A DNA stretch of 64,000 bases from Escherichia phage Ptacy1496: sequence record PQ863253.1, one strand, 5' to 3'. Of the stretch, positions 15,628 through 39,385 are shown one piece after another (positions within the stretch are counted from its first letter, which is position 1; the number at the start of each line of letters is the position of its first letter). A program made the translations under genes and the position numbers. The notes beneath the pieces are model-generated. The model had not been told where the DNA came from. It ran no database searches and saw only the letters and a list, made by a program, of their open reading frames with translations.

Positions 15628-15680
15628 CCTCATGTTATGTCAGTAAGACTACTATAACACAACACGAGGGACTTGTAAAC
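15628..15680 (-). promoter_or_regulatory. Early promoter cassette (-35 GTTTACA, 17 nt spacer, -10 TATAGT); 53 bp, 52 of 53 identical to the alc promoter region at 30886-30938
   Basis: Direct comparison of the two segments in the sequence. Confidence 0.65.
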
Positions 15681-17737
15681 TACATCTTGAACTTTTTAGA
15701 CATTCCGTTGATGTTAACCAAAGAAGCTAAGATTTGAGAAACTTCGTTTTCCTCTTCTTTTGATTCTTCTACAAGGAATTGATTAAATCCAGCCATTGGA
15801 CGAACTTCACCAGTTTCCATTAGATGGTCGCCATCATATACTGATTCTTCTAATTGTTCAGAAGGAGGAACGATTGTACCTTCGATTAGATACTTGTTAT
15901 AAGCAGTTTCTTTCATAAAGTAAGTACTTACTTTATTAATCTTCAGTAAAATTCCACGTGGTAGAATAACTTCAGCTTCTGACGGAAATCCTGATAAATG
16001 ACCCGGAACGATAACTTTGATTCGCTCAGCTCCTTTAATTACCATACCCACGCTAGTTTCAGCATCTTCATTAGCATATGTAGAATGACTACCCATATGC
16101 ATCAAATCTTCTGCATCAACGGAACCTTCTCCTTCACCAGAAAATACTGCGCCGGAATCATCTAGAGCCATATAGTTTTTACCATGCTCACCGAAGATAT
16201 TTGGTTTAAGCGATGTGGATACGAAGTTCTTGAAATAGAACATTTTATTTTCAATGTTATGACGCAAAGTTTTAAAGGTAACTTCTTGTCCACGGTAAAG
16301 TGTAGTTCCTGGAGGAAGAACTGAACCTTTAGCGAATGCAGAATCAAGCGTCTCAATATGTTTAATAGCTCGTTCCATATATTCTTCACGGGTAGAATCT
16401 GGTTTACCCAAAAGGAACGAGTTCATTTCAACATATGAATCTGCACAATAATCTTCAATTACATCAGATTCAGCTTGAGTTAATCCTTTTGGAGTTACTT
16501 CAGTGCTTGCGTATTCATATGCCTGAGCAGCAGATTCATTAATCAATTTATAAATGCCATTCATGACAAATTGAATAATAGCTGTCTTTTCATCTGGCGT
16601 AGCTTTAGAACCTTTAACCAAATCATTGATAATTTTCTTAATAACATCAAAGCTATTAGAAATATTAATATCAGCAAGATCGCTTAAAATTTTATCAGTC
16701 TTATAATCAAAGAATTCTTTATTCTTTAAATATTCTTGAGAACCTTGATATGTTATATCGCTCTGTAACTTGATAAATGGATCACGTAAACGTGCATGGG
16801 CTAATGCAATATGATTTCGGAAGCTTTCGAGTTCATAATCACTAGATTTAAAACGAGAAGCGCTTCTCATACCGCCTATAGCTCCTTTGCTGAAGTTTGA
16901 ACCAATTTGAATAACGCCAGAGTTCATTGGTCCTTCTGCTTTATACACCGGAACTTTAGATTCAAACTCTTGATATTTCTTAGCAGCGAAGCTATCACCC
17001 TGAAGTGAAGCATCAACAGTAGAATATTGAGCTTGTGCTGCTAATCGACGACTAATTTTAGTTTTCTGAATAACAGCTTGGTCCGTGCGCTTATCATTTT
17101 CTAAAGCAATAGAAGCAGCAACAGCGACAGCTTTAGGAACAGCATTTCCTGTTTTAACGTCTACATAAACATCACCGACCTTTGATTCAACTTTTGTGAA
17201 TAACTCAGTTGAAATAGGAGGTACACCTGGAATGTCTTCTAAATTGGCATTTTTACGATAAACCATAATATATGCGTACTTTTTATCATAATCCCAGATT
17301 TCCTTTAAAAGAACATATCGACCTGCTCCTTTAGTACGTACTAAACGGTCAGCAATAACTTGCATTTGACGAGCAGCGCCATTTGTTTTACTCTTTAGTA
17401 CGCGGAATAAGCATGCATCAATTTTATACTGTTTCATTGTTTGAAGAGCAGTATCAAAAACAGCGTTAATGACGCCAATTGGATTTCCACCCAAGTTTCT
17501 AAGTTTAACCAGTGATAATTTCTCGTTGACACCTATCATTACGATATGCATCATTTTATCGCCCGGCTTAACGTTTTTATTTGTATCACCTCCAGAGGTG
17601 TATGTACAAAATCTAAATCCAGGAAGCACGCTTTCTTCGCCGGCTTGAATAGCAAAAATTTGAGGTATTTTATGCTTAGGATTTAAGTTAACAACCGGCG
17701 CCGAAGCGCCGTCAAATAATTCTGTAATAAGTTCCAT
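15680..17737 (-). CDS. Alt-like ADP-ribosyltransferase paralog (685 aa), tandem to alt
   Basis: N-terminal 230 aa and C-terminal tail closely similar to Alt; ART motifs retained (TLYRGQ, FYFKNFVSTSL, EAEVILPRG); central region divergent. Confidence 0.85.
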   Translation of the reverse strand: MELITELFDGASAPVVNLNPKHKIPQIFAIQAGEESVLPGFRFCTYTSGGDTNKNVKPGDKMMHIVMIGVNEKLSLVKLRNLGGNPIGVINAVFDTALQTMKQYKIDACLFRVLKSKTNGAARQMQVIADRLVRTKGAGRYVLLKEIWDYDKKYAYIMVYRKNANLEDIPGVPPISTELFTKVESKVGDVYVDVKTGNAVPKAVAVAASIALENDKRTDQAVIQKTKISRRLAAQAQYSTVDASLQGDSFAAKKYQEFESKVPVYKAEGPMNSGVIQIGSNFSKGAIGGMRSASRFKSSDYELESFRNHIALAHARLRDPFIKLQSDITYQGSQEYLKNKEFFDYKTDKILSDLADINISNSFDVIKKIINDLVKGSKATPDEKTAIIQFVMNGIYKLINESAAQAYEYASTEVTPKGLTQAESDVIEDYCADSYVEMNSFLLGKPDSTREEYMERAIKHIETLDSAFAKGSVLPPGTTLYRGQEVTFKTLRHNIENKMFYFKNFVSTSLKPNIFGEHGKNYMALDDSGAVFSGEGEGSVDAEDLMHMGSHSTYANEDAETSVGMVIKGAERIKVIVPGHLSGFPSEAEVILPRGILLKINKVSTYFMKETAYNKYLIEGTIVPPSEQLEESVYDGDHLMETGEVRPMAGFNQFLVEESKEEENEVSQILASLVNINGMSKKFKM

Positions 17738-17740
17738 GAT

Positions 17741-19789
17741 TTATCCTTGAACGAACTTGTAAGGCATGTTTGTAATATCTATGCAAGACGCAATAATTCC
17801 AAGAGATGATTCTACTTTCTGTTTAACATTTGATGAAACAAATGATGCAAAGTCAACTCTATCTTCTATATCACCTGTCATTGTAACTACTTCGCCGGTT
17901 TCCATTAAACGGTCACCGTCATAAATTACTGATTCGGTGAGTTCTTCGGTGGTCATAACTTCAGCTTGAATAAGCTTGTTGTTAGTTTTGACTGTTCCAT
18001 CATTGTAAGATGCATCAGTTATTTTATTAACTTTGACCATTAATCCACGTGGCAAAATGACTTCCATTTCATTTGAAGGCGCTAAACTTCCACCGGGTAA
18101 AACAACATTGACTTTATCAGCCCCAGTAATAACCCATCCAATTCCGACTAAATTATCGCTAGAATTAACAAGCCCTTCATCATTTTTATCGATAGAAATG
18201 TTTAGACGCTTTTCATCTGGTAAAACACCAACAGCTGAATCAGTCATCCAAGTACCAAAAATGTTTGGATATAATGATGTTGATACAAAATTTCTAAAAT
18301 AAAAAACTCGATTTTTTACCATTGCTTCGTATATTGAAGGTAACATTCGTTGTGAACGATACAAAGTAATACCTTTTGGTAATCGTTCACCATTTTTAAA
18401 GGCTGAATCTAAATTATCAATAGCTTTTTCTATGTCAGATGCTGTCAAAATACTTGTACGCTCATCTGGATTATATAATCCCAAAAGAGCATTATTTATG
18501 TCTACATATCCTGAACCTACGTATTCACGAATTCCGCGTTTTTGTGCTGGTGTGTATTTAGATGAATCTTTATTTTCGACTATAGGATGTAATGACCATC
18601 CAGCTGTAAGAGCATATCCACGTAATTCTCTTCGAATAATCTTTGTTTTTATTGCATTCCAAGAATTTTGTACTAACTCATTTGCAGCATCTTGGTTTAA
18701 ATGCGAATGTTTGTTAATATTTCTTTCAAACCAAGCACCTTTATATTTTTCTAAAGTATCATCGACGATAGAAGCAATAGTTTCTAAAGTTTTTATTGAA
18801 GTAATAGATTCTTTTCGTAATTTTTCTAAAGCTTTATTTTTTATTTCTGCATTAATAATGGATTCTTTATCTTCAGGAATTATAGAAGCTTCTCTGAATG
18901 CCATCCCAGCTGTAACATTGCTAAGAGCATTCTCTAGTGCAAATCCTGAAGTAGAAATTACCGTTAATTCATTAGAATCAGAAATTAAAGGCGCATCAGC
19001 GGGTTTATTTAATTCTGCTGCTGAAGCCTCAAATTTTTGAAACATCGGTGTTTCAAATCTAGAAGATTCCAATGACTGACTTTGTGCAATTGCTCTACGG
19101 GAAATTTTAACTTTAACGATTACAGCTTGGTCAGAACGTTTATCATTTTCTTGTGCAATAGATGCTGCAATTGCCTCATTTTTGGTTACTTGAGCTCCGG
19201 TATCTTTATTGATATAAACATCACCGACCTTCGATTCAACTTTAGTAAAGAGCTCGGTACTAATTTCCGGAACTCCTGGAATGTCTTCTAGTGATACATT
19301 TTTGCGATGTATAAGAATATATGCATACTTTTTATCATAATCCCAGAGTTCCTTAAGAAGGACGTATCTGCCACCTGAACGACTACGGATAAGTCTATCA
19401 GCAATAACTTGAATTTGTCGAGCTTGACCAGCGGTTTTAGACTTAAGAATACGAAGCATACAAGCATCAATTTTATACTGACGCATTGTTTGCATTGCAA
19501 CAGTAAAAACTGAATTGATATAATTAATTGGGCTTGGACCAAGACCTTTTAATTTAGCAATTGAACCTTTAGCGGTTAATGTAAAAGGAACAATATGCAT
19601 CATTTTATCGCCCATTTTTAAATCGCGATTAGTATCACCTCCAGATGTATAGGTACATAAACGAAAGCCTGGTTGTTCAATTGCATCATCAACATGAACT
19701 GAAAAAATTTGCGGTATTTTCTTCTTTGGATTTAAGTTTGTAATCGGAAGAGTAGTATCTTCGTCAAATAATTCTGTAATAAGTTCCAT
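17741..19789 (-). CDS. alt: Alt, head-packaged ADP-ribosyltransferase
   Basis: 682 aa from second ATG (better RBS spacing); recognised as T4 Alt; R-S-E type motifs (LYRSQ, FVSTSL, EMEVILPRG). Confidence 0.92.
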   Translation of the reverse strand: MELITELFDEDTTLPITNLNPKKKIPQIFSVHVDDAIEQPGFRLCTYTSGGDTNRDLKMGDKMMHIVPFTLTAKGSIAKLKGLGPSPINYINSVFTVAMQTMRQYKIDACMLRILKSKTAGQARQIQVIADRLIRSRSGGRYVLLKELWDYDKKYAYILIHRKNVSLEDIPGVPEISTELFTKVESKVGDVYINKDTGAQVTKNEAIAASIAQENDKRSDQAVIVKVKISRRAIAQSQSLESSRFETPMFQKFEASAAELNKPADAPLISDSNELTVISTSGFALENALSNVTAGMAFREASIIPEDKESIINAEIKNKALEKLRKESITSIKTLETIASIVDDTLEKYKGAWFERNINKHSHLNQDAANELVQNSWNAIKTKIIRRELRGYALTAGWSLHPIVENKDSSKYTPAQKRGIREYVGSGYVDINNALLGLYNPDERTSILTASDIEKAIDNLDSAFKNGERLPKGITLYRSQRMLPSIYEAMVKNRVFYFRNFVSTSLYPNIFGTWMTDSAVGVLPDEKRLNISIDKNDEGLVNSSDNLVGIGWVITGADKVNVVLPGGSLAPSNEMEVILPRGLMVKVNKITDASYNDGTVKTNNKLIQAEVMTTEELTESVIYDGDRLMETGEVVTMTGDIEDRVDFASFVSSNVKQKVESSLGIIASCIDITNMPYKFVQG

Positions 19790-19812
19790 CATAGCCTCTC
19801 TAGTGTTTATTC

Positions 19813-30941: not shown

Positions 30942-32529
<1,588 letters not shown>

Positions 32530-32556
32530 AATAAAATGGGCCTTGCGGCCCACTCC

Positions 32557-33735
32557 TTAAAAGTATTTTTTAAAACTCATCATAACTTTATCATCAACGT
32601 CATTATCAATCTGTGCTACAAGATAAGATGACAGTTCTACTTCTTGTGGCGCGGATTGAACATTATCAGAATTAAGATATTCACGAATCCAAGGATACGG
32701 ATGTTTAACCGGAGCATCGGTAATTGGGCATGGAAGACCACACTGTTTCATACGAGATACAGTTAAGTAATCAATAAAGCTCCACATGCTATTTGTATTT
32801 AATCCAGGAACATCGCCATCTTTAAATAAATGAACCGCCCAATCTTTTTCTTGGCGGTTAACTTCCATGAAAATATCAACTGCTTCTTGTTCACACTCTT
32901 GGGCAATTTTAACCCATTCATCGCCATCAGTGCCAAGTTGAAGTTGACGAATAATATATTGAGTACCTTTAAGGTGAAGTTGCTCATCGCGCGCAATGAA
33001 CTTCATAATCTTGGCATTACCTTCCATGATTTCCATGTTCTTATGGAAGTTAAAGGTACATGCGAAAGATACATAAAAACGAATAGCTTCCAATGCGTTG
33101 ATTACGTGCAGGCAGAGGTAAAGAGATTTCATTAGCTCACGCTTCCAATATGTCTCATGCTCAATAGCATCTTCAATAACGTCTTCGTCTGCATTAATTT
33201 CTTTTTGGTATTCGATATCAGCTTTAGCGTTTTCCCAATAACGAGTTTTAATTAGAACATCATCATAATAACGTCCAATTGATTCAGCACGTTTCATAAT
33301 AGCTTCATCTAGTACAATCTCATCAAATACCTTCGATGGATCAGTATAAAGATTTCGCATGATATGAGTATATGAACGGCTGTGAATAGTTTCACTAAAA
33401 GTCCATGTAGCAACCCATGTATCAAGACTTGGGTCTGAAATTAATGACATAAGTACAGCAGATGGCGCACGACCCTGAATGCTATCCAAAAGTGATTGAT
33501 ACTTCAAGTTATTAGTAAAAATATTCTGCTGATACTGAGGAAGTTTATTAAATTGTGCAGCATCCATCATTAAGTTTACTTCTTCCGGGCGCCAGAAGAA
33601 TGATAAAGACTTCTCAGTAAGTTCTTCAAATACTCTATGTCGTTGAATATCATAACGCGCAATACCAAGACCTGAACCAAAAAACATAGGTTCTTTTAAA
33701 ACATCAACTGGATTTGTATTAAAAACTGTAGACAT
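32557..33735 (-). CDS. nrdB: Ribonucleotide reductase small subunit, uninterrupted (no intron)
   Basis: 392 aa from MSTVF with GAGG RBS; continuous ORF. Confidence 0.93.
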   Translation of the reverse strand: MSTVFNTNPVDVLKEPMFFGSGLGIARYDIQRHRVFEELTEKSLSFFWRPEEVNLMMDAAQFNKLPQYQQNIFTNNLKYQSLLDSIQGRAPSAVLMSLISDPSLDTWVATWTFSETIHSRSYTHIMRNLYTDPSKVFDEIVLDEAIMKRAESIGRYYDDVLIKTRYWENAKADIEYQKEINADEDVIEDAIEHETYWKRELMKSLYLCLHVINALEAIRFYVSFACTFNFHKNMEIMEGNAKIMKFIARDEQLHLKGTQYIIRQLQLGTDGDEWVKIAQECEQEAVDIFMEVNRQEKDWAVHLFKDGDVPGLNTNSMWSFIDYLTVSRMKQCGLPCPITDAPVKHPYPWIREYLNSDNVQSAPQEVELSSYLVAQIDNDVDDKVMMSFKKYF

Positions 33736-34466
33736 TAATTTTTCCTCTTTAAAATTCTGCCGTGTTTCCAACCTGGCGGTATAATATCATCTTTACCTAT
33801 AAGCGTGCATTCACTTCCGTTATTAATCCATTTCTTACCGCGGATTCCTTTATAATCTCTTGGTTTTATTTTGTCAAACTTTGCATCAAGTTGATATGAC
33901 CATCTAAATCCATAAGCATATTGAAATTTACCCTCGGCACAATATTTGATATTTGACCCGTTTCCATTAACTGACCGGGACGCTGCCGCAATAGAGTGAA
34001 AGGTTTCTATGAAATCCCCATCTAATGAGAATTTATGTATTTCTACAGATGGGCACGCATATCTATTCACGTTAGATACATGCTGTTTAGTTTCGTTTTT
34101 ATGATGCTTGCCTAGCATCCCTTTAGGATGAGGATTATTTTTCCAATATTTCTTAAAGAACTCAGAATTAGCTTTAGCAAATAATTTTCTGTGTAAGCTG
34201 TACAATCTGTTATTAATTCTATTGCCAGCTTTATCTGTTGCCATTAACGTTAACGCAGAGGCAAGACCAAAATGACCTTCATTTATCTTACATAGTAATA
34301 GATGAGCTATAAAATGTTCTCTGGCTGTTAATTCAACTAAATTTTCCTTATCATCAGAACCTCCCATACATTTAGGGATTATATGATGTGTCTCTTTATA
34401 TTCTAGTAAAGATTCCCGAGCCTGAGCTCGGGAAATTAGGTCGTTATAGATTTTTTGATAATTCAT
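33735..34466 (-). CDS. mobE: HNH homing endonuclease (MobE-like), free-standing between nrdA and nrdB
   Basis: 243 aa; HNH motif HHIIPKCMGGSDDKENLVELTAREHFIAH; stop overlaps nrdB start (TAATG). Confidence 0.8.
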   Translation of the reverse strand: MNYQKIYNDLISRAQARESLLEYKETHHIIPKCMGGSDDKENLVELTAREHFIAHLLLCKINEGHFGLASALTLMATDKAGNRINNRLYSLHRKLFAKANSEFFKKYWKNNPHPKGMLGKHHKNETKQHVSNVNRYACPSVEIHKFSLDGDFIETFHSIAAASRSVNGNGSNIKYCAEGKFQYAYGFRWSYQLDAKFDKIKPRDYKGIRGKKWINNGSECTLIGKDDIIPPGWKHGRILKRKN

Positions 34467-36730
34467 TACAATTTACACGCTGCACAATCATCGGCTTTTG
34501 GAGTTTCTATTTCATAATCATCAGTACCGGAACCATCACGAGTATTATGATAATAGAAGTTTTTAATGCCATAATACCATCCGTATAGCATGTCATCAAT
34601 CATTACAGACATTGGAACCTTTCCTTTTGGAAAAATCTGCGGGTCATAGTATGTATTTGCTGAAGCTGATTGACATACCCATTTCAGCATAATAGCTACC
34701 TGCGTAAGATAAGGTTTATTACCTTTCTTAGCTAATTTCCATGTATAATCATAGAGGTCTATGTTATGCTCAATATTGGGCACGACTTGATTAAAGGAGC
34801 CCTCTTTTGATTCTTTAACAGAGACTGGTCCACGTGGAGGCTCGATACCGTTTGTACTGTTAGAAACTTGGGAAGATGACTCACATGGCATAAGTGCTGA
34901 TAATGTGCTATTACGGATGCCAAAGAGCTTAAGGTCTTCCCGCAGCGACGACCAGTCACAAACGTATTTTGGAGCTGCGATTTGGTCAATCTTTTTATTG
35001 TACCAGTCGATAGGTAATTCGCCTCGAGACCAACGAGTGTCTGAATAATATTCACAAGGTCCTTTTTCTTTGGCGAGTTTAATGGATGCTTTAATGAGTC
35101 CATACTGTAATCTCTCAAATAGTTCATGTGTTAAATCGTTAGCATCTTCATAAGAAGCAAAGTTACTTGCCAACCAAGCTGCATAGTTAGTAACACCTAC
35201 ACCGAGGTTACGACGCTTTTTAGCTTTTTCTGCTTCAGGAACTGGATATCCTTGGTAATCCAAAAGATTATCAAGAGCACGAACCTGGACTTCTGCCAAT
35301 TCATTAATTTTATCTTGGTCTTGCCAGTCAAAATTATCCAGTACGAATGCAGAGAGAGTACACAATCCAATTTCAGCATCAGGACTATTCACATCATTTG
35401 TTGGAATAGCAATTTCACAACACAAGTTGCTCTGACGAATAGGTGCCTTTTCACGAATAAACGGAGTATAGTTATTCGTATTATCTATGAACTGTACATA
35501 AATCCTTGCTGTTCCTGAGCGTTCAGTCATGAGTAATTCAAACAGTTCACGGGCTTTAATACGCTTTTTACGAATATTAGGGTCTTTTTCTGCGGCTTCG
35601 TATAATTCACGGAAACGGTCTTGGTCTTTAAAATAAGAATAATAAAGCTCGCCACCCATTTCATGCGGACTGAACAAAGTAATGTAATCGTTCTTTCCAA
35701 AACGTTCCATCATCAAATCATTCAGCTGAACACCATAATCCATATGACGAATGCGGTTTTCTTCTACGCCTTTGTTATTTTTCAAAACGAGAAGATTTTC
35801 AACTTCCAAATGCCAAATAGGATAATAAGCAGTAGCAGCGCCGCCACGAATTCCGCCCTGTGAACATGATTTAACAGCAGTCTGAAAATGTTTCCAAAAA
35901 GGAATAACACCAGTATGGCGTACTTCACCCATGCCAATCTTAGAACCTTCAGCACGAATCATACCAACGTTAATACCAATTCCAGCACGTTTGGAGATAT
36001 ATTCAACAATTGAAGCAGAAGCCTTATTAATAGACTTTAATGAATCACCTGCCTCAATAACAACGCATGAACTAAACTGCCGAGTTGGAGTACGACAACC
36101 AGCCATAATAGGAGTTGGTAATGAAATCTGTCGAGTAGATACTGCTTCATAAAAACGAATAACATGTTTTAATCTATCAACAGGTTCATCTTGATGCAAT
36201 GCCATTCCAATAGTCATAAATGCAAACTGCGGAGTTTCATAAATTTGACCAGTGGTTTTATCTTTAACTAAATATTTTTCTTTTAATTGCATCGCCCCGG
36301 AATAAGTAAATTCCATATCCCGCTCGTGCTTAATTTTTGATTCTAAAAATGTAATTTCTTCTGCTGAATATTTTGACAACAATTCAGGGTCATATTTACC
36401 TGCATTTACACAGTAAGAAATATGGTCAATAAATGAACGTGGTTCATACTGCCCATAAACATGCTTACGAAGAGCAAACATTAAACAGCGTGCAGCTACA
36501 TATTGATAATCAGGTTCTTCAACCGAAATAGAATTCGCAGCAGCCTTAATGACAATAGTCTGAATATCATCAGTTGTCATTCCATCACGGAGATAAGATT
36601 TAATATTTTCATATAATTCATAAGGATCTACTGATGTTCCTTCAGCTGCCCAAGATAAAACTTTAATAATTTTTTGTGGGTCAAAGCTCTGAGAAACACC
36701 ACTACTTTTGATAACATTAATTAATTGCAT
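34466..36730 (-). CDS. nrdA: Ribonucleotide reductase large subunit
   Basis: 754 aa; ATP-cone N-terminus and class I RNR catalytic core. Confidence 0.95.
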   Translation of the reverse strand: MQLINVIKSSGVSQSFDPQKIIKVLSWAAEGTSVDPYELYENIKSYLRDGMTTDDIQTIVIKAAANSISVEEPDYQYVAARCLMFALRKHVYGQYEPRSFIDHISYCVNAGKYDPELLSKYSAEEITFLESKIKHERDMEFTYSGAMQLKEKYLVKDKTTGQIYETPQFAFMTIGMALHQDEPVDRLKHVIRFYEAVSTRQISLPTPIMAGCRTPTRQFSSCVVIEAGDSLKSINKASASIVEYISKRAGIGINVGMIRAEGSKIGMGEVRHTGVIPFWKHFQTAVKSCSQGGIRGGAATAYYPIWHLEVENLLVLKNNKGVEENRIRHMDYGVQLNDLMMERFGKNDYITLFSPHEMGGELYYSYFKDQDRFRELYEAAEKDPNIRKKRIKARELFELLMTERSGTARIYVQFIDNTNNYTPFIREKAPIRQSNLCCEIAIPTNDVNSPDAEIGLCTLSAFVLDNFDWQDQDKINELAEVQVRALDNLLDYQGYPVPEAEKAKKRRNLGVGVTNYAAWLASNFASYEDANDLTHELFERLQYGLIKASIKLAKEKGPCEYYSDTRWSRGELPIDWYNKKIDQIAAPKYVCDWSSLREDLKLFGIRNSTLSALMPCESSSQVSNSTNGIEPPRGPVSVKESKEGSFNQVVPNIEHNIDLYDYTWKLAKKGNKPYLTQVAIMLKWVCQSASANTYYDPQIFPKGKVPMSVMIDDMLYGWYYGIKNFYYHNTRDGSGTDDYEIETPKADDCAACKL

Positions 36731-37047
36731 AAGTCCTCAACTTGAAAATCGTCTTTAAACAATCGGTTAACTATATGAGCTATTATATCACCATGACACG
36801 GCTTTGGTTTACATGTGCATCCTAGCCTCATTCCACGTAAAGGCTCTAAATGTGCTTTAGTTATTTCTCCGGATTTAATTCGACGTATAAAATCTTTTTT
36901 GAATAATTCAATGGCAGCCTCCCGGCTGCCAGCATCTTTACCGACGTAATTTCCCCAAAATGTACCACGGTGAATATTAACATCAAAGTCGGATTTATAT
37001 TTATTCACTACCCGACATAGACGGCCCGCGCGGTGATAATTCGGCAT
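36721..37047 (-). CDS. Hypothetical Cys/His-containing protein (nrdA.1 position)
   Basis: 108 aa; CxC...CH motif; overlaps nrdA start. Confidence 0.55.
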
Positions 37048-37276
37048 ATTGTTTTTCCGTTAAAACAGTAATATCATAATAACAGTCAGAAGAAATTTTA
37101 ATGGTGGAAACTTTATTATCAAAATACTCACGGGTCATTTTATGAGTATAATATTTTTTGCCATAAATGATAATAGGCTGATTTGGTCCTGGAACTTCTA
37201 ACTCGCTTGGGTTAGGAAGTGTAAAAAGAACAACGTCAGAAGTATCTTTAAATCGTAAAATCATAAATCCTCGCAA
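37001..37276 (-). CDS. Hypothetical protein (nrdA.2 position)
   Basis: 91 aa ORF overlapping next ORF by 47 nt in another frame. Confidence 0.5.
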
Positions 37277-37284
37277 TAATAAAA

Positions 37285-38145
37285 TTATACCGCCATCTTT
37301 CCTTTAATTGGCGGGTGAGATACATAGTCGTTAAGAACAAAATTATGCGGCTTTGCGAATTGACTCAACCAAAATACCTGTGATTCTGTGTCCCATTCAT
37401 CAAATTCATCTGGGAATTTTAATTGTAATTCGCATAAATCCATAGGTTCACGACGCAAAATTTCTTTACATTGTTCTACGTGATTCATATAGATATGAGT
37501 ATTACCGCCAGAAAATATCAAATCTCCCGGAATAAGATTACATATCTTAGCTACAATATGAACTAACGCAGCATATGATGCAATATTAAATGGAAGACCG
37601 AGGAAAACATCTACTGATCGTTGATACCACTGAAGGTCAAGGTATCCATTACGAACATTAAATTGATAGAACATATGACAAGGTGGTAATGCCATCTGCT
37701 TGAGTTCAGCTGGATTCCATGCTGAAACAATTTGACGCCTATCATTTGGCAGTTTTTTAATACGATCAATAACTTCTATAATTTGGTCTACACCACCAAA
37801 ATCACGCCACTGTTTTCCATAAATTGGACCAAGTTCACCGCTATGGTATCCTAAATCTTTTGCTTGATTTTCGTAATTTTCATCCCAAACTGTTTTGCCT
37901 TGGATTAACGAATCATGTTGAATTAATCGCAAATCATTGACATTTGTGCTTCCCGATAAAAACCATATTAGCTCAGCAATGCAAGCTTTCCAGGCGAGCT
38001 TCTTAGTTGTTACTGCAGGAAAACCTTTAGTTAAATCCCAGCGTAATTTAGTACCGAACAAAGCAATTGTTCCTGTGCCCGTTCGGTCATCGGTTTCATA
38101 GCCATTTTCAAAAATGTCTTTAATTAAATCTTGGTATTGTTTCAT
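37285..38145 (-). CDS. td: Thymidylate synthase, uninterrupted (no group I intron)
   Basis: 286 aa continuous ORF with conserved TS active-site region (PPCH). Confidence 0.95.
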
Positions 38146-38190
38146 TTAGTACCTTATATAAATTATAATACATTTTATGAAGCTAAATAA

Positions 38191-38550
38191 TCAATACGGT
38201 TTAGCATCAAATTTTCTCTCAATTTCAGGCGTGAAATATAATTCTTTACCGCGTTTGGAAAAGCGACCAATAATATGATAATTATTCTCATCAAACGTGA
38301 TATTACCAATATCCATAGCTTTCAACCAAATATCGATATTTCTATCCAGCTTTATGTCAAAATTCCAATACGGAGAACTATTACCGAAAATACTGCAAGC
38401 GGATTCAGTGAAACAACTGCTATAAATCTTGTCTTTAGGAACTACTAATTGATAGACACCTTTAATAAACTGAGGACCCTGCCACTTTGGCTGTTTCGCG
38501 TCTTTTTCTAATAAAATAGGGTAATAATTAAAATTCATATTTTCCGCCAC
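38191..38550 (-). CDS. Hypothetical protein inserted between frd and td (115-119 aa; first ATG at 38538, ORF track start 38550 is GTG)
   Basis: Complete ORF filling the 413 bp between frd stop and td start. Confidence 0.6.
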   Translation of the reverse strand: MAENMNFNYYPILLEKDAKQPKWQGPQFIKGVYQLVVPKDKIYSSCFTESACSIFGNSSPYWNFDIKLDRNIDIWLKAMDIGNITFDENNYHIIGRFSKRGKELYFTPEIERKFDAKPY

Positions 38551-38558
38551 GCGTTATT

Positions 38559-39385
<827 letters not shown>

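Follow-up and report, generated by a model that had tools for sequence, protein, structure and literature searches.

An RB3-type mobE allele as a probable free-standing homing endonuclease gene in an intronless nrd-td region of a Tequatrovirus

It has long been textbook knowledge that T-even phages vary in whether they carry the td and nrdB introns, and patchy presence is a hallmark of mobile, dispensable elements such as homing endonuclease genes. The intron endonuclease I-TevI cleaves 23/25 nt upstream of the td insertion site (PMC2988022), and for I-TevIII we used the cleavage positions given in PMC1865063. The free-standing endonuclease MobE of T4 nicks nrdB of phage T2 at nt 122-126 (Wilson & Edgell 2009, PMC2790892). 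Site-specific nicking or cleavage and super-Mendelian inheritance have been published for the T4 allele only (PMC2790892), and roles have been described for the terminator inside T4 mobE and for its UAAUGA overlap (PMC2790892, PMC2988022). For the allele found in phage RB3, we found no data on activity, target site or mobility in the literature covered, to which Sandegren et al. 2005 did not belong.

The window analysed here is a stretch of 64,000 nucleotides from Escherichia phage Ptacy1496 (PQ863253.1), a Tequatrovirus (T4-like coliphage) with ∼96.6% identity to EO1 and G9062 over 6.5 kb. Every gene of its nrd-td region lies on the minus strand, as do all features described below, and the order nrdB-mobE-nrdA-nrdA.1-nrdA.2-td is that of an ordinary T4-like coliphage stretch. 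At least 13 GenBank phages have the same collinear, uninterrupted nrd-td arrangement; the arrangement and its RB3-type mobE are already known, being catalogued in dozens of GenBank phage genomes. The nrdA CDS (34466..36730, 754 aa) carries the Pfam domains ATP-cone, Ribonuc_red_lgN and Ribonuc_red_lgC. Next to it lie homologues of nrdA.1 (36721..37047; DUF4326, E=5.5e-22), positioned as in T4, and of nrdA.2 (37001..37264; DUF5496, E=8e-55), which starts at the ATG at 37264. Taken as a whole, we consider it probable that the region is a Tequatrovirus block without td and nrdB introns in which an RB3-type mobE resides as a free-standing homing endonuclease gene, acting by the mechanism set out below.

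The td CDS (37285..38145, 286 aa) is uninterrupted and matches the full Pfam Thymidylat_synt profile (E=5e-95). In blastn comparisons, its nt 1-549 correspond to T4 nt 1-549 (94.5% identity) and its nt 550-861 to T4 nt 1567-1878. Since the two HSPs abut at 549|550, the 1017-nt intervening segment of T4 is exactly absent, and the exon junction ...CTCGGT|CTTCCA... falls at 37597|37596. The gap was taken from the blastn HSPs, as a MAFFT alignment with the T4 gene misplaced it. Similarly, the nrdB CDS (32557..33735, 392 aa; Pfam Ribonuc_red_sm, E=1.4e-36) is uninterrupted: nt 1-674 correspond by blastn to RB3 exon 1, and nt 677-1179 to RB3 nt 1768-2270 (exon 2) as well as to T4 nt 1263-1765, which places the junction at 33060|33059. 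We assigned the start of nrdB to the ATG at 33735, with an N-terminus (MSTVFNT...) identical to that of the T4, T2 and RB3 proteins; a TTG start at 33771, present in the program-made ORF list, was rejected because NrdB of these three phages begins at the former position. No intervening sequence was detected in the alignments at td nt 549|550 or nrdB nt 676|677, the exons being contiguous. An Rfam scan of the window for group I introns gave no match either, but it also missed the introns of the T4 and RB3 control loci; it is thus uninformative, and the exon alignments alone count. The first-pass annotation had described both genes as continuous, with a 243-aa HNH ORF between nrdB and nrdA whose stop overlaps the nrdB start. 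Both descriptions are borne out, the alignment with T4 giving precise junctions and no insertion or split ORF. The T4 introns were either never acquired in these td and nrdB genes or lost from them.

Both empty insertion sites retain sequences close to the known homing sites. Around the td site (37567..37625), comparison with the spliced T4 sequence shows seven substitutions between -27 and +30, and the I-TevI cleavage motif CAACG is kept at 37619-37623 (-27..-23). Around the nrdB site (33030..33090), only two substitutions (-5 and -2) separate positions -30 to +30 from the spliced exons of T4 and RB3, and the -14/-16 region, where I-TevIII cleaves, is identical. As these target sequences are nearly intact, td and nrdB could gain introns from a co-infecting intron-carrying phage, and it is plausible on this comparison that they may serve as recipients of the I-TevI and I-TevIII introns. 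The region had also been viewed in the first-pass annotation as the configuration expected of a genome that receives homing introns; this view can only be called plausible. In this phage group, intronless td and nrdB are more common than interrupted ones. The td intron occurs in ∼35% of related records and the nrdB intron in ∼25%, and most relatives are without both.

The free-standing HNH ORF (33735..34466, 243 aa; nrdB.2) is 96.7% identical at the amino acid level to the RB3 gene annotated mobE. It has 854 homologues at E≤1e-5 and matches PHROG 655, 'homing endonuclease', with E=4.6e-57. With a pN/pS of 0.10 relative to the RB3 allele, it is a real gene under purifying selection. Its ATG overlaps the nrdA stop codon (TTGTAATGAAT, TAATGA type), and its TAA shares one base with the nrdB ATG (AAAATTAATGTCT, TAATG type). 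A terminator scan revealed within its 5' end a terminator-like hairpin (34413..34434), TTCCCGAGC-TCAG-GCTCGGGAA followed by TCTTTACTAG. It corresponds to the weak intrinsic terminator that T4 mobE contains; T4 and RB3 have the very same stem-loop, and a few bases of the T-rich tail differ. At the other end of the ORF, a GAGG Shine-Dalgarno sequence lies 9 nt upstream of the nrdB ATG. By eye, we also noted a candidate middle promoter for nrdB (33781..33805) consisting of a MotA-box-like CGCTTAT, a 12-nt spacer and a -10 TATTAT; with one mismatch, it weakly suggests that nrdB may be transcribed from within the HNH ORF. The strict MotA-box/-10 pattern TGCTT...TAnnnT was absent from the ORF in both the window and RB3, and two matches were present in T4.

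The protein encoded by this ORF carries an N-terminal HNH motif, HHIIPKCMGGSDDKENLVELTAREHFIAH, in which H27, H28, N42, H51 and H55 are invariant across a 24-sequence family alignment. The Pfam HNH score (19.7 bits, E=9e-4) is slightly under the 21.4-bit gathering cutoff. Codons 1-55 (34302..34466), which form the HNH (beta-beta-alpha-Me) core, share at least 93% nucleotide identity with mobE of T4, T4T (a resequenced T4) and T6. Codons 56-243 (33738..34301) form an allele-specific DNA-binding cassette unrelated to those of T4 and T6 mobE. It includes a NUMOD1/IENR1-type helix-turn-helix module at aa 147-177 (33936..34028; Pfam NUMOD1, 25.9 bits vs a 22.8-bit cutoff). In the AlphaFold model of the protein (pLDDT 86.9), the region of this module (aa 143-190) folds as strand-strand-helix-helix-strand with pLDDT >90. 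By fold, I-HmuI (1U3E; probability 0.96) is the best match in PDB, with a low TM-score (0.22-0.28) that is to be expected of flexible proteins with several modules, and T4 MobB is the second match in a viral structure library (E=1.6e-18). Searches of PDB by sequence, with the single sequence and with a profile, returned the generic HNH motif only, I-HmuI being found solely by fold comparison. In layout, the HNH core precedes a helical linker, the NUMOD1/IENR1 module and a conserved C-terminal beta-hairpin with the PxGWxxGR motif, the last three forming an extended DNA-binding arm of the I-HmuI/MobB type. As in the Mob family, a C-terminal NUMOD-type DNA-binding region thus follows the nuclease core, as indicated by the NUMOD1 match, the I-HmuI-like model and the MobB-like alignment.

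Compared with the MobE proteins of T4 and T6, the window protein shares the insertion point between nrdA and nrdB, the first 55 codons (at least 93% nucleotide identity), the hairpin and the UAAUGA coupling. However, MobE of T4T and T6 has NUMOD3 repeats and a C-terminal CxxC...HxxxC zinc finger, whereas the window protein combines NUMOD1/IENR1 with a PxGWxxGR tail. In all allele pairs, identity drops to chance level exactly after nt 165, and the window protein aligns to T4T MobE over aa 1-105 only. Pfam gave hints of NUMOD3 and the zinc finger in MobE of T6 and HY03 and in T4 NrdB.1, and neither domain was detected in the window protein. Judged by sequence, the ORF thus shares the locus and regulatory context of T4-type MobE but does not appear to be its strict orthologue, as a homologous DNA-binding domain is missing. 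The first-pass annotation had considered the endonuclease larger than expected for MobE and thought that it may carry an extra C-terminal DNA-binding region. The first point fails because its yardstick, the 141-aa MobE, comes from the T4 reference record, in which the gene is broken up into mobE and nrdB.1 by two insertions of 1 nt that T4T does not have; with 232 aa in T4T and 213 aa in T6, 243 aa is a normal size. As for the second, the DNA-binding region was found but it replaces that of MobE rather than extending it, the protein being MobB-like after codon 55. A T4 MobE with an added tail was accordingly rejected, the sequence beyond codon 55 being unrelated to MobE of T4 and T6.

The RB3-type allele is present in 54 phage records (allele-specific 553 nt, ≥95%), against ∼21 records for the T4-type and ∼50 for the T6-type allele. 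A query with the 5' part of nrdB matches ∼507 related records, and the RB3-type allele occurs in ∼10% of close relatives; in most IMG/VR relatives, merely a 38-56 bp spacer lies between nrdA and nrdB. Like members of the Mob family, the gene is thus free-standing between conserved genes, outside any intron or intein, and patchily distributed among close relatives. Its flanks are mosaic. A comparison of nrdA 3' ends showed that the window's variant of the last 25 nt is seen only in mobE-carrying Tequatroviruses, and the existence of a distinct variant in these carriers is consistent with co-conversion of the flank. On the nrdB side, the region corresponding to the one that T4 MobE nicks, nt 96-135 (33601..33640), is of a T6/RB32-like haplotype embedded in RB3-like flanks. 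We considered whether this patch had been left behind when a T6-type MobE attacked, an idea dropped because the mobE-less phages RB32 and HP3 share it. No polymorphism in the 5' part of nrdB separates the RB3-type carriers from the mobE-less phages, both main haplotypes occurring with and without mobE, a point against the reading preferred here.

By analogy with T4 MobE, the window gene would lack a promoter of its own and be transcribed from the nrdA promoters, with transcription attenuated by the hairpin within its 5' end and low-level translation ensured by coupling to nrdA termination at the UAAUGA overlap. In a mixed infection, its product would nick or cut the genome of a co-infecting relative without the gene, in the region of the nrdA/nrdB junction, and recombinational repair would then copy mobE and flanking markers into the cut genome. 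Nuclease activity and mobility are thus attributed to the window protein through its T4 counterpart, as is the position of its presumed target.

The three alleles have a common left arm of ∼190 bp, composed of the last 25 nt of nrdA and HNH codons 1-55, and a common breakpoint right after the His55 codon; shared sequence resumes at the nrdB start codon. We tentatively propose, as a possibility that falls well short of being established, that at least three mobE alleles supplant each other at one docking site, the nrdA-nrdB junction of T-even phages. The RB3-type allele, with its MobB-like DNA-binding cassette, would then have a target other than the T4 MobE nick site; a candidate is the nrdA-3'/spacer sequence that stands empty in phages without mobE. 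If true, the alleles could displace each other via recombination in the shared nuclease-coding arm.

Alternatively, the RB3-type protein might keep the specificity of T4 MobE and, in mobE-less phages, make its nick around nt 122-126 of nrdB in the non-coding strand, its different C-terminal arm reading the same conserved FFWRPEE-coding block. The shared locus, catalytic core (codons 1-55, at least 93% identical in nucleotides) and regulatory hairpin speak for this, as does the target-site logo of Wilson & Edgell, which pooled mobE-containing vs mobE-lacking phages with RB3 listed (PMC2790892). However, the DNA-binding part is unrelated, with NUMOD1/IENR1 instead of the NUMOD3 and zinc finger of T4 and T6 MobE. 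Moreover, nt 96-135 of nrdB are essentially identical to those of T2, the sensitive type, in 10 of the 12 RB3-type carriers, which would cut themselves unless this is tolerated; the T6/RB32-like patch of the window, for its part, recurs in mobE-less phages. We regard a T4-like specificity as rather unlikely.

The strength of purifying selection (pN/pS 0.10), together with the conservation of the locus in other genera, would also be compatible with a gene that is kept for its usefulness and is not purely selfish. Homologues with 60-73% amino acid identity lie at the same locus in Salmonella phage Melville and Escherichia phage RZ, both judged from the annotation, and in Citrobacter phage CF1 ERZ-2017, the latter placed by record coordinates that match IMG/VR locus L020. 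The ORF might then be a domesticated, immobile gene kept for the benefit of the phage, either by excluding the nrd markers of competitors or for the nrdB expression signals embedded in it, since its 3' end contains the nrdB Shine-Dalgarno sequence and possibly a promoter, and a promoter embedded in T4 mobE has been argued to select against deletion (PMC2790892). Yet only ∼10% of close relatives carry the ORF, many having an empty 51-bp spacer, and the mosaic flanks fit ongoing gene conversion, so that we find domestication improbable. Finally, we hold it very improbable that the ORF is no more than the inactive remains of a homing endonuclease gene, like the deleted I-TevIII of T4: homing endonuclease genes often decay once fixed and the Pfam HNH score is slightly below threshold, but the ORF is full-length, matches its homologues end to end, keeps all catalytic residues, has a pN/pS of 0.10 and yields a confident structural model. 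A mobile, RB3-type homing endonuclease gene therefore remains our preferred reading.

Under the name MobE, at least three alleles are thus grouped that share just a 55-codon nuclease core, so that enzymes with unrelated DNA-binding domains are mixed in those published target-site logos for which all phages with mobE were pooled. In resequenced T4 strains, one ORF of 232 aa takes the place of the 141-aa MobE and NrdB.1 of the T4 reference record. The nrdA-nrdB locus is also a tidy natural case in which homing endonucleases have swapped their DNA-binding domains at a defined breakpoint. Allele heterogeneity, record correction and domain swap are by-products of this analysis, and of modest value only.

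Among known systems, mobE of RB3 and its copies (RB5, RB6, RB9, RB10, SH7, G50, Sf23, EC121, EO1 and others) come closest, with the same locus, a length of 243 aa, 96-100% amino acid identity and the same overlaps; RB3 differs in that its td and nrdB contain introns, with I-TevI and I-TevIII, and these are absent from the window. T4 MobB, which adjoins alpha-gt, shares 40% amino acid identity over aa 1-191, including the IENR1/NUMOD1 module, but it lies at another locus, has two IENR1 repeats and is without the C-terminal WINNG...PxGWxxGR. I-HmuI, the nicking endonuclease of Bacillus phage SPO1, resembles the window protein in its N-terminal HNH, extended arm and terminal helix-turn-helix, whereas it is intron-encoded, the window ORF being free-standing, and only 12% identical. 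Phage T2 (AP018813) has intronless td and nrdB, the same gene order as the window and, as in the window, an extra ORF between td and frd; in contrast, it has no mobE, a 51-bp spacer separates its nrdA and nrdB, and its nrdA 3' end is of a different variant.

The ORF map of the window, based on its ORF listing with domains assigned by Pfam, contains a single minus-strand gene series from rnlA (30942-32102) through frd (38559-39140). Between these two genes lie the Pfam-supported denA (GIY-YIG, 32119-32553), nrdB (32557-33735), a 243-aa HNH ORF (33735-34466), nrdA (34466-36730), nrdA.1 (DUF4326, 36721-37047), nrdA.2 (DUF5496, 37001-37264) and td (37285-38145), all unambiguously assigned, and a 119-aa ORF (38191-38550) that matches PHROG 1928 and no Pfam family. 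RB3 and T2 also have this last ORF, but T4, whose frd and td overlap, does not. When 32100-38600 was compared with GenBank phages by megablast, the window fell within Tequatrovirus, the best hits being Escherichia phages EO1 and vB_EcoM_G9062 (96.6% across the entire 6.5 kb, in a single piece). Over its full length, the query is collinear and gap-free in at least 13 different phages (EO1, G9062, Ec_O157kw, JLBYU31, JLBYU24, ESH35, Sf23, Aplg8, G50, IsaacDaniel, bov9_1, bov10K1 and FriedrichMiescher). The 100-nt identity profile of the region is the usual mosaic, with divergent patches at the nrdB 5' end, nrdB nt 436-636 and the td 3' end. Outside this series, two tandem minus-strand ORFs of ∼685 aa each (15680-17737 and 17741-19792) both carry an ADP-ribosyltransferase domain (ADPrib_exo_Tox) and look like Alt paralogues.

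The first-pass annotation described td and nrdB as continuous genes lacking the group I introns of T4, and alignment with the annotated T4 and RB3 loci bears this out. In td, nt 1-549 correspond to T4 exon 1 and nt 550-861 to T4 nt 1567-1878, giving an exact exon junction at 37597|37596 and a full-length protein. The two exons of RB3 and T4 are likewise matched by nrdB nt 1-674 and 677-1179, with the junction at 33060|33059. The nrdB start is ATG 33735; TTG 33771, proposed by the mechanical listing, was rejected because it precedes the conserved N-terminus MSTVFNT. An Rfam scan of the window found no intron and also missed the known introns of the T4 and RB3 controls; since gathering thresholds fail to pick up these ORF-containing group I introns of td and nrdB, this negative scan carries no weight and cannot exclude such introns. 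The C-terminal part of td at 37300-37450 (codons ∼232-270) is strongly diverged: it has 57-69% nucleotide identity to T4, T2 and RB3, the protein segment being replaced relative to these phages, but is 90% identical to EO1. A second patch, hypervariable and situated on the upstream side of the empty intron site of nrdB (nt ∼436-636, 33100-33300), shares 68-81% identity with T4/RB3, 84-86% with T2 and 96-98% with EO1, and encodes a variable loop with four more residues than in T4.

The intronless state is the majority condition among related records. With the T4 td intron and 136 nt of its exon 1 as query, 533 records were matched, 187 of them over at least 80% of the query length, which puts the intron encoding I-TevI in roughly 35%. 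The pure intron sequence of RB3 nrdB matched 129 records (85 at full length), and the nrdB 5' region was matched by ∼507. As in the window, both genes are intronless in phage T2 (AP018813). At the td site, the CAACG cleavage motif is kept at -27 to -23; seven positions differ from spliced T4 between -27 and +30, most of the substitutions also occurring in T2. I-TevI cuts 23/25 nt upstream and its contacts are sequence-tolerant (PMC2988022). The nrdB site has two differences (-5 and -2), and the -14/-16 region cleaved by I-TevIII, the nrdB intron endonuclease (PMC1865063), is unchanged. These kept cleavage regions, the few substitutions and the tolerant contacts make it plausible that both genes would be competent intron recipients.

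The HNH ORF fits tightly between its neighbours, its start codon (ATG) overlapping the stop of nrdA (TAATGA) and its stop codon (TAA) the nrdB ATG (TAATG), so that the reported endonuclease gene with a stop overlapping nrdB is confirmed. Pfam finds NUMOD1 above cutoff (aa 147-177) and HNH just below it (aa 22-44), and PHROG 655, 'homing endonuclease', matches with E=4.6e-57. The protein is 96.7% identical to the RB3 product annotated 'mobE, putative homing endonuclease, nrdB.2', and 854 homologues were retrieved by database search. Residues H27, H28, P31, C33, G36, N42, E50, H51, A54 and H55 are invariant in 24 full-length relatives. Its differences from the RB3 allele number 23.2 synonymous and 8.8 non-synonymous (pN/pS 0.10), a ratio indicative of purifying selection. 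The AlphaFold model (pLDDT 86.9) has four parts: a beta-beta-alpha core, helices 66-74, 89-110 and 124-136, a strand-strand-helix-helix-strand module (143-190) and a C-terminal beta-hairpin (211-224). Its best match among solved structures is I-HmuI (1U3E, probability 0.96), and T4 MobB is the second among viral models (E=1.6e-18). A GAGG Shine-Dalgarno sequence lies within the ORF upstream of nrdB. A strict MotA-box/-10 pair is absent from the ORF, whereas T4 has two; a one-mismatch promoter candidate lies upstream of nrdB (CGCTTAT, 12 nt, TATTAT; 33805-33781).

In 54 phage records the 553 allele-specific nucleotides occur with an identity of ≥95%. A 100% identical protein copy, together with a T4-like nrd-td region, occurs in PV654520.1, 'Pseudomonas phage vB_PSGBLB0006' (host P. 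aeruginosa); the explanation is probably a wrong host or label, or else a contaminated sample. A comparison of 34 dereplicated IMG/VR loci that encode close relatives of NrdB showed an nrdA-nrdB spacer of 38-56 bp in most of them and the RB3-type gene in four (one 100% identical, three 60-69%). Homologues of 60-73% adjoin nrdA in Salmonella phage Melville and Escherichia phage RZ, and another does so in Citrobacter phage CF1 ERZ-2017, whose record coordinates match IMG/VR locus L020. The nrdA 3' ends and alleles were compared in loci L001-L006 and L041-L051. The last 25 nt of nrdA are GCCGAYGATTGYGCAGCGTGTAAATTG in every mobE-carrying Tequatrovirus examined, whatever the allele, while the mobE-less T2, RB32, HP3 and three IMG/VR loci have another variant, GCTGAAGATTGTTCATCCTGTAAATTA, followed in these by a 51-nt spacer that contains TGATATAAT and, in addition, a GACTCAYGGACGAGTC hairpin. 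That the variant tracks mobE presence is consistent with co-conversion of the flanks along with the element. T4 MobE nicks T2 nrdB at nt 122-126 (PMC2790892). A protective polymorphism was sought in this region (nrdB nt 96-135), which is T2-like in 10 of 12 RB3-type carriers; the T6-like haplotype of the window, SP1 and Aplg8 also occurs in the mobE-less RB32 and HP3, and thus there is no allele-specific signature. In the window these positions (33601-33640) form a short T6/RB32-like patch with RB3-like flanks, and the surrounding 141 nt have a best GenBank phage match of ≤96.5%.

The ORF had been considered larger than expected for MobE, a view that does not hold. The T4 reference (NC_000866) lists a 141-aa mobE followed by an 83-aa nrdB.1, but the 213-aa HY03/T6 protein ends in a sequence identical to NrdB.1, and T4T (HM137666) has a single annotated mobE of 699 nt. 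Comparison of the two loci (L003:6717-7417, NC_000866; L005:234-932, HM137666) revealed two 1-base insertions in the reference (A at mobE nt 351, C at nt 438), attributable either to a sequencing error in the reference or to a mutation of the laboratory strain. In T4T, RB59 and other T4 isolates a single 232-aa ORF encodes both the NUMOD3 repeats and a zinc finger. MobE proteins therefore span 213-243 aa, and the 141-aa form belongs to the split record.

Overall, the observation of intronless td and nrdB with an HNH gene is confirmed and its earlier interpretation was partly right; the gene is already known and its arrangement is common. Only the split mobE of the T4 reference and, priority relative to Sandegren et al. 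2005 aside, the three-allele structure with a single breakpoint after codon 55 are mildly new. The DNA of the window, T4 and RB3 is near-identical from nrdA into the ORF and then similarity ends abruptly. The shared stretch includes the hairpin TTCCCGAGC-TCAG-GCTCGGGAA, corresponding to the weak terminator inside T4 mobE (PMC2790892, PMC2988022). In matches per 15 nt, the pairs window/T4T, window/T6 and T4T/T6 all score 12-15 as far as nt 165 (codon His55) and chance level thereafter. The RB3, T4 and T6 types have in common the last 25 nt of nrdA (34469-34493) and HNH codons 1-55 (34302-34466), part at this one point, and are alike again from the nrdB start codon. The suspected extra C-terminal DNA-binding region is right as to NUMOD1, but the window allele is an alternative cassette after codon 55 rather than MobE plus an extension. 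NUMOD3 repeats and a CPHCG...HYDKC zinc finger characterize the 213-aa T6/HY03 allele; alignment of the window protein is limited to aa 1-105 with T4T MobE but covers aa 1-191 with T4 MobB (40% identity). The protein is therefore MobE in position and nuclease core, whereas its DNA-binding arm is of the MobB kind. Domain shuffling among phage homing endonucleases has already been described (PMC10448857, PMC2790892).
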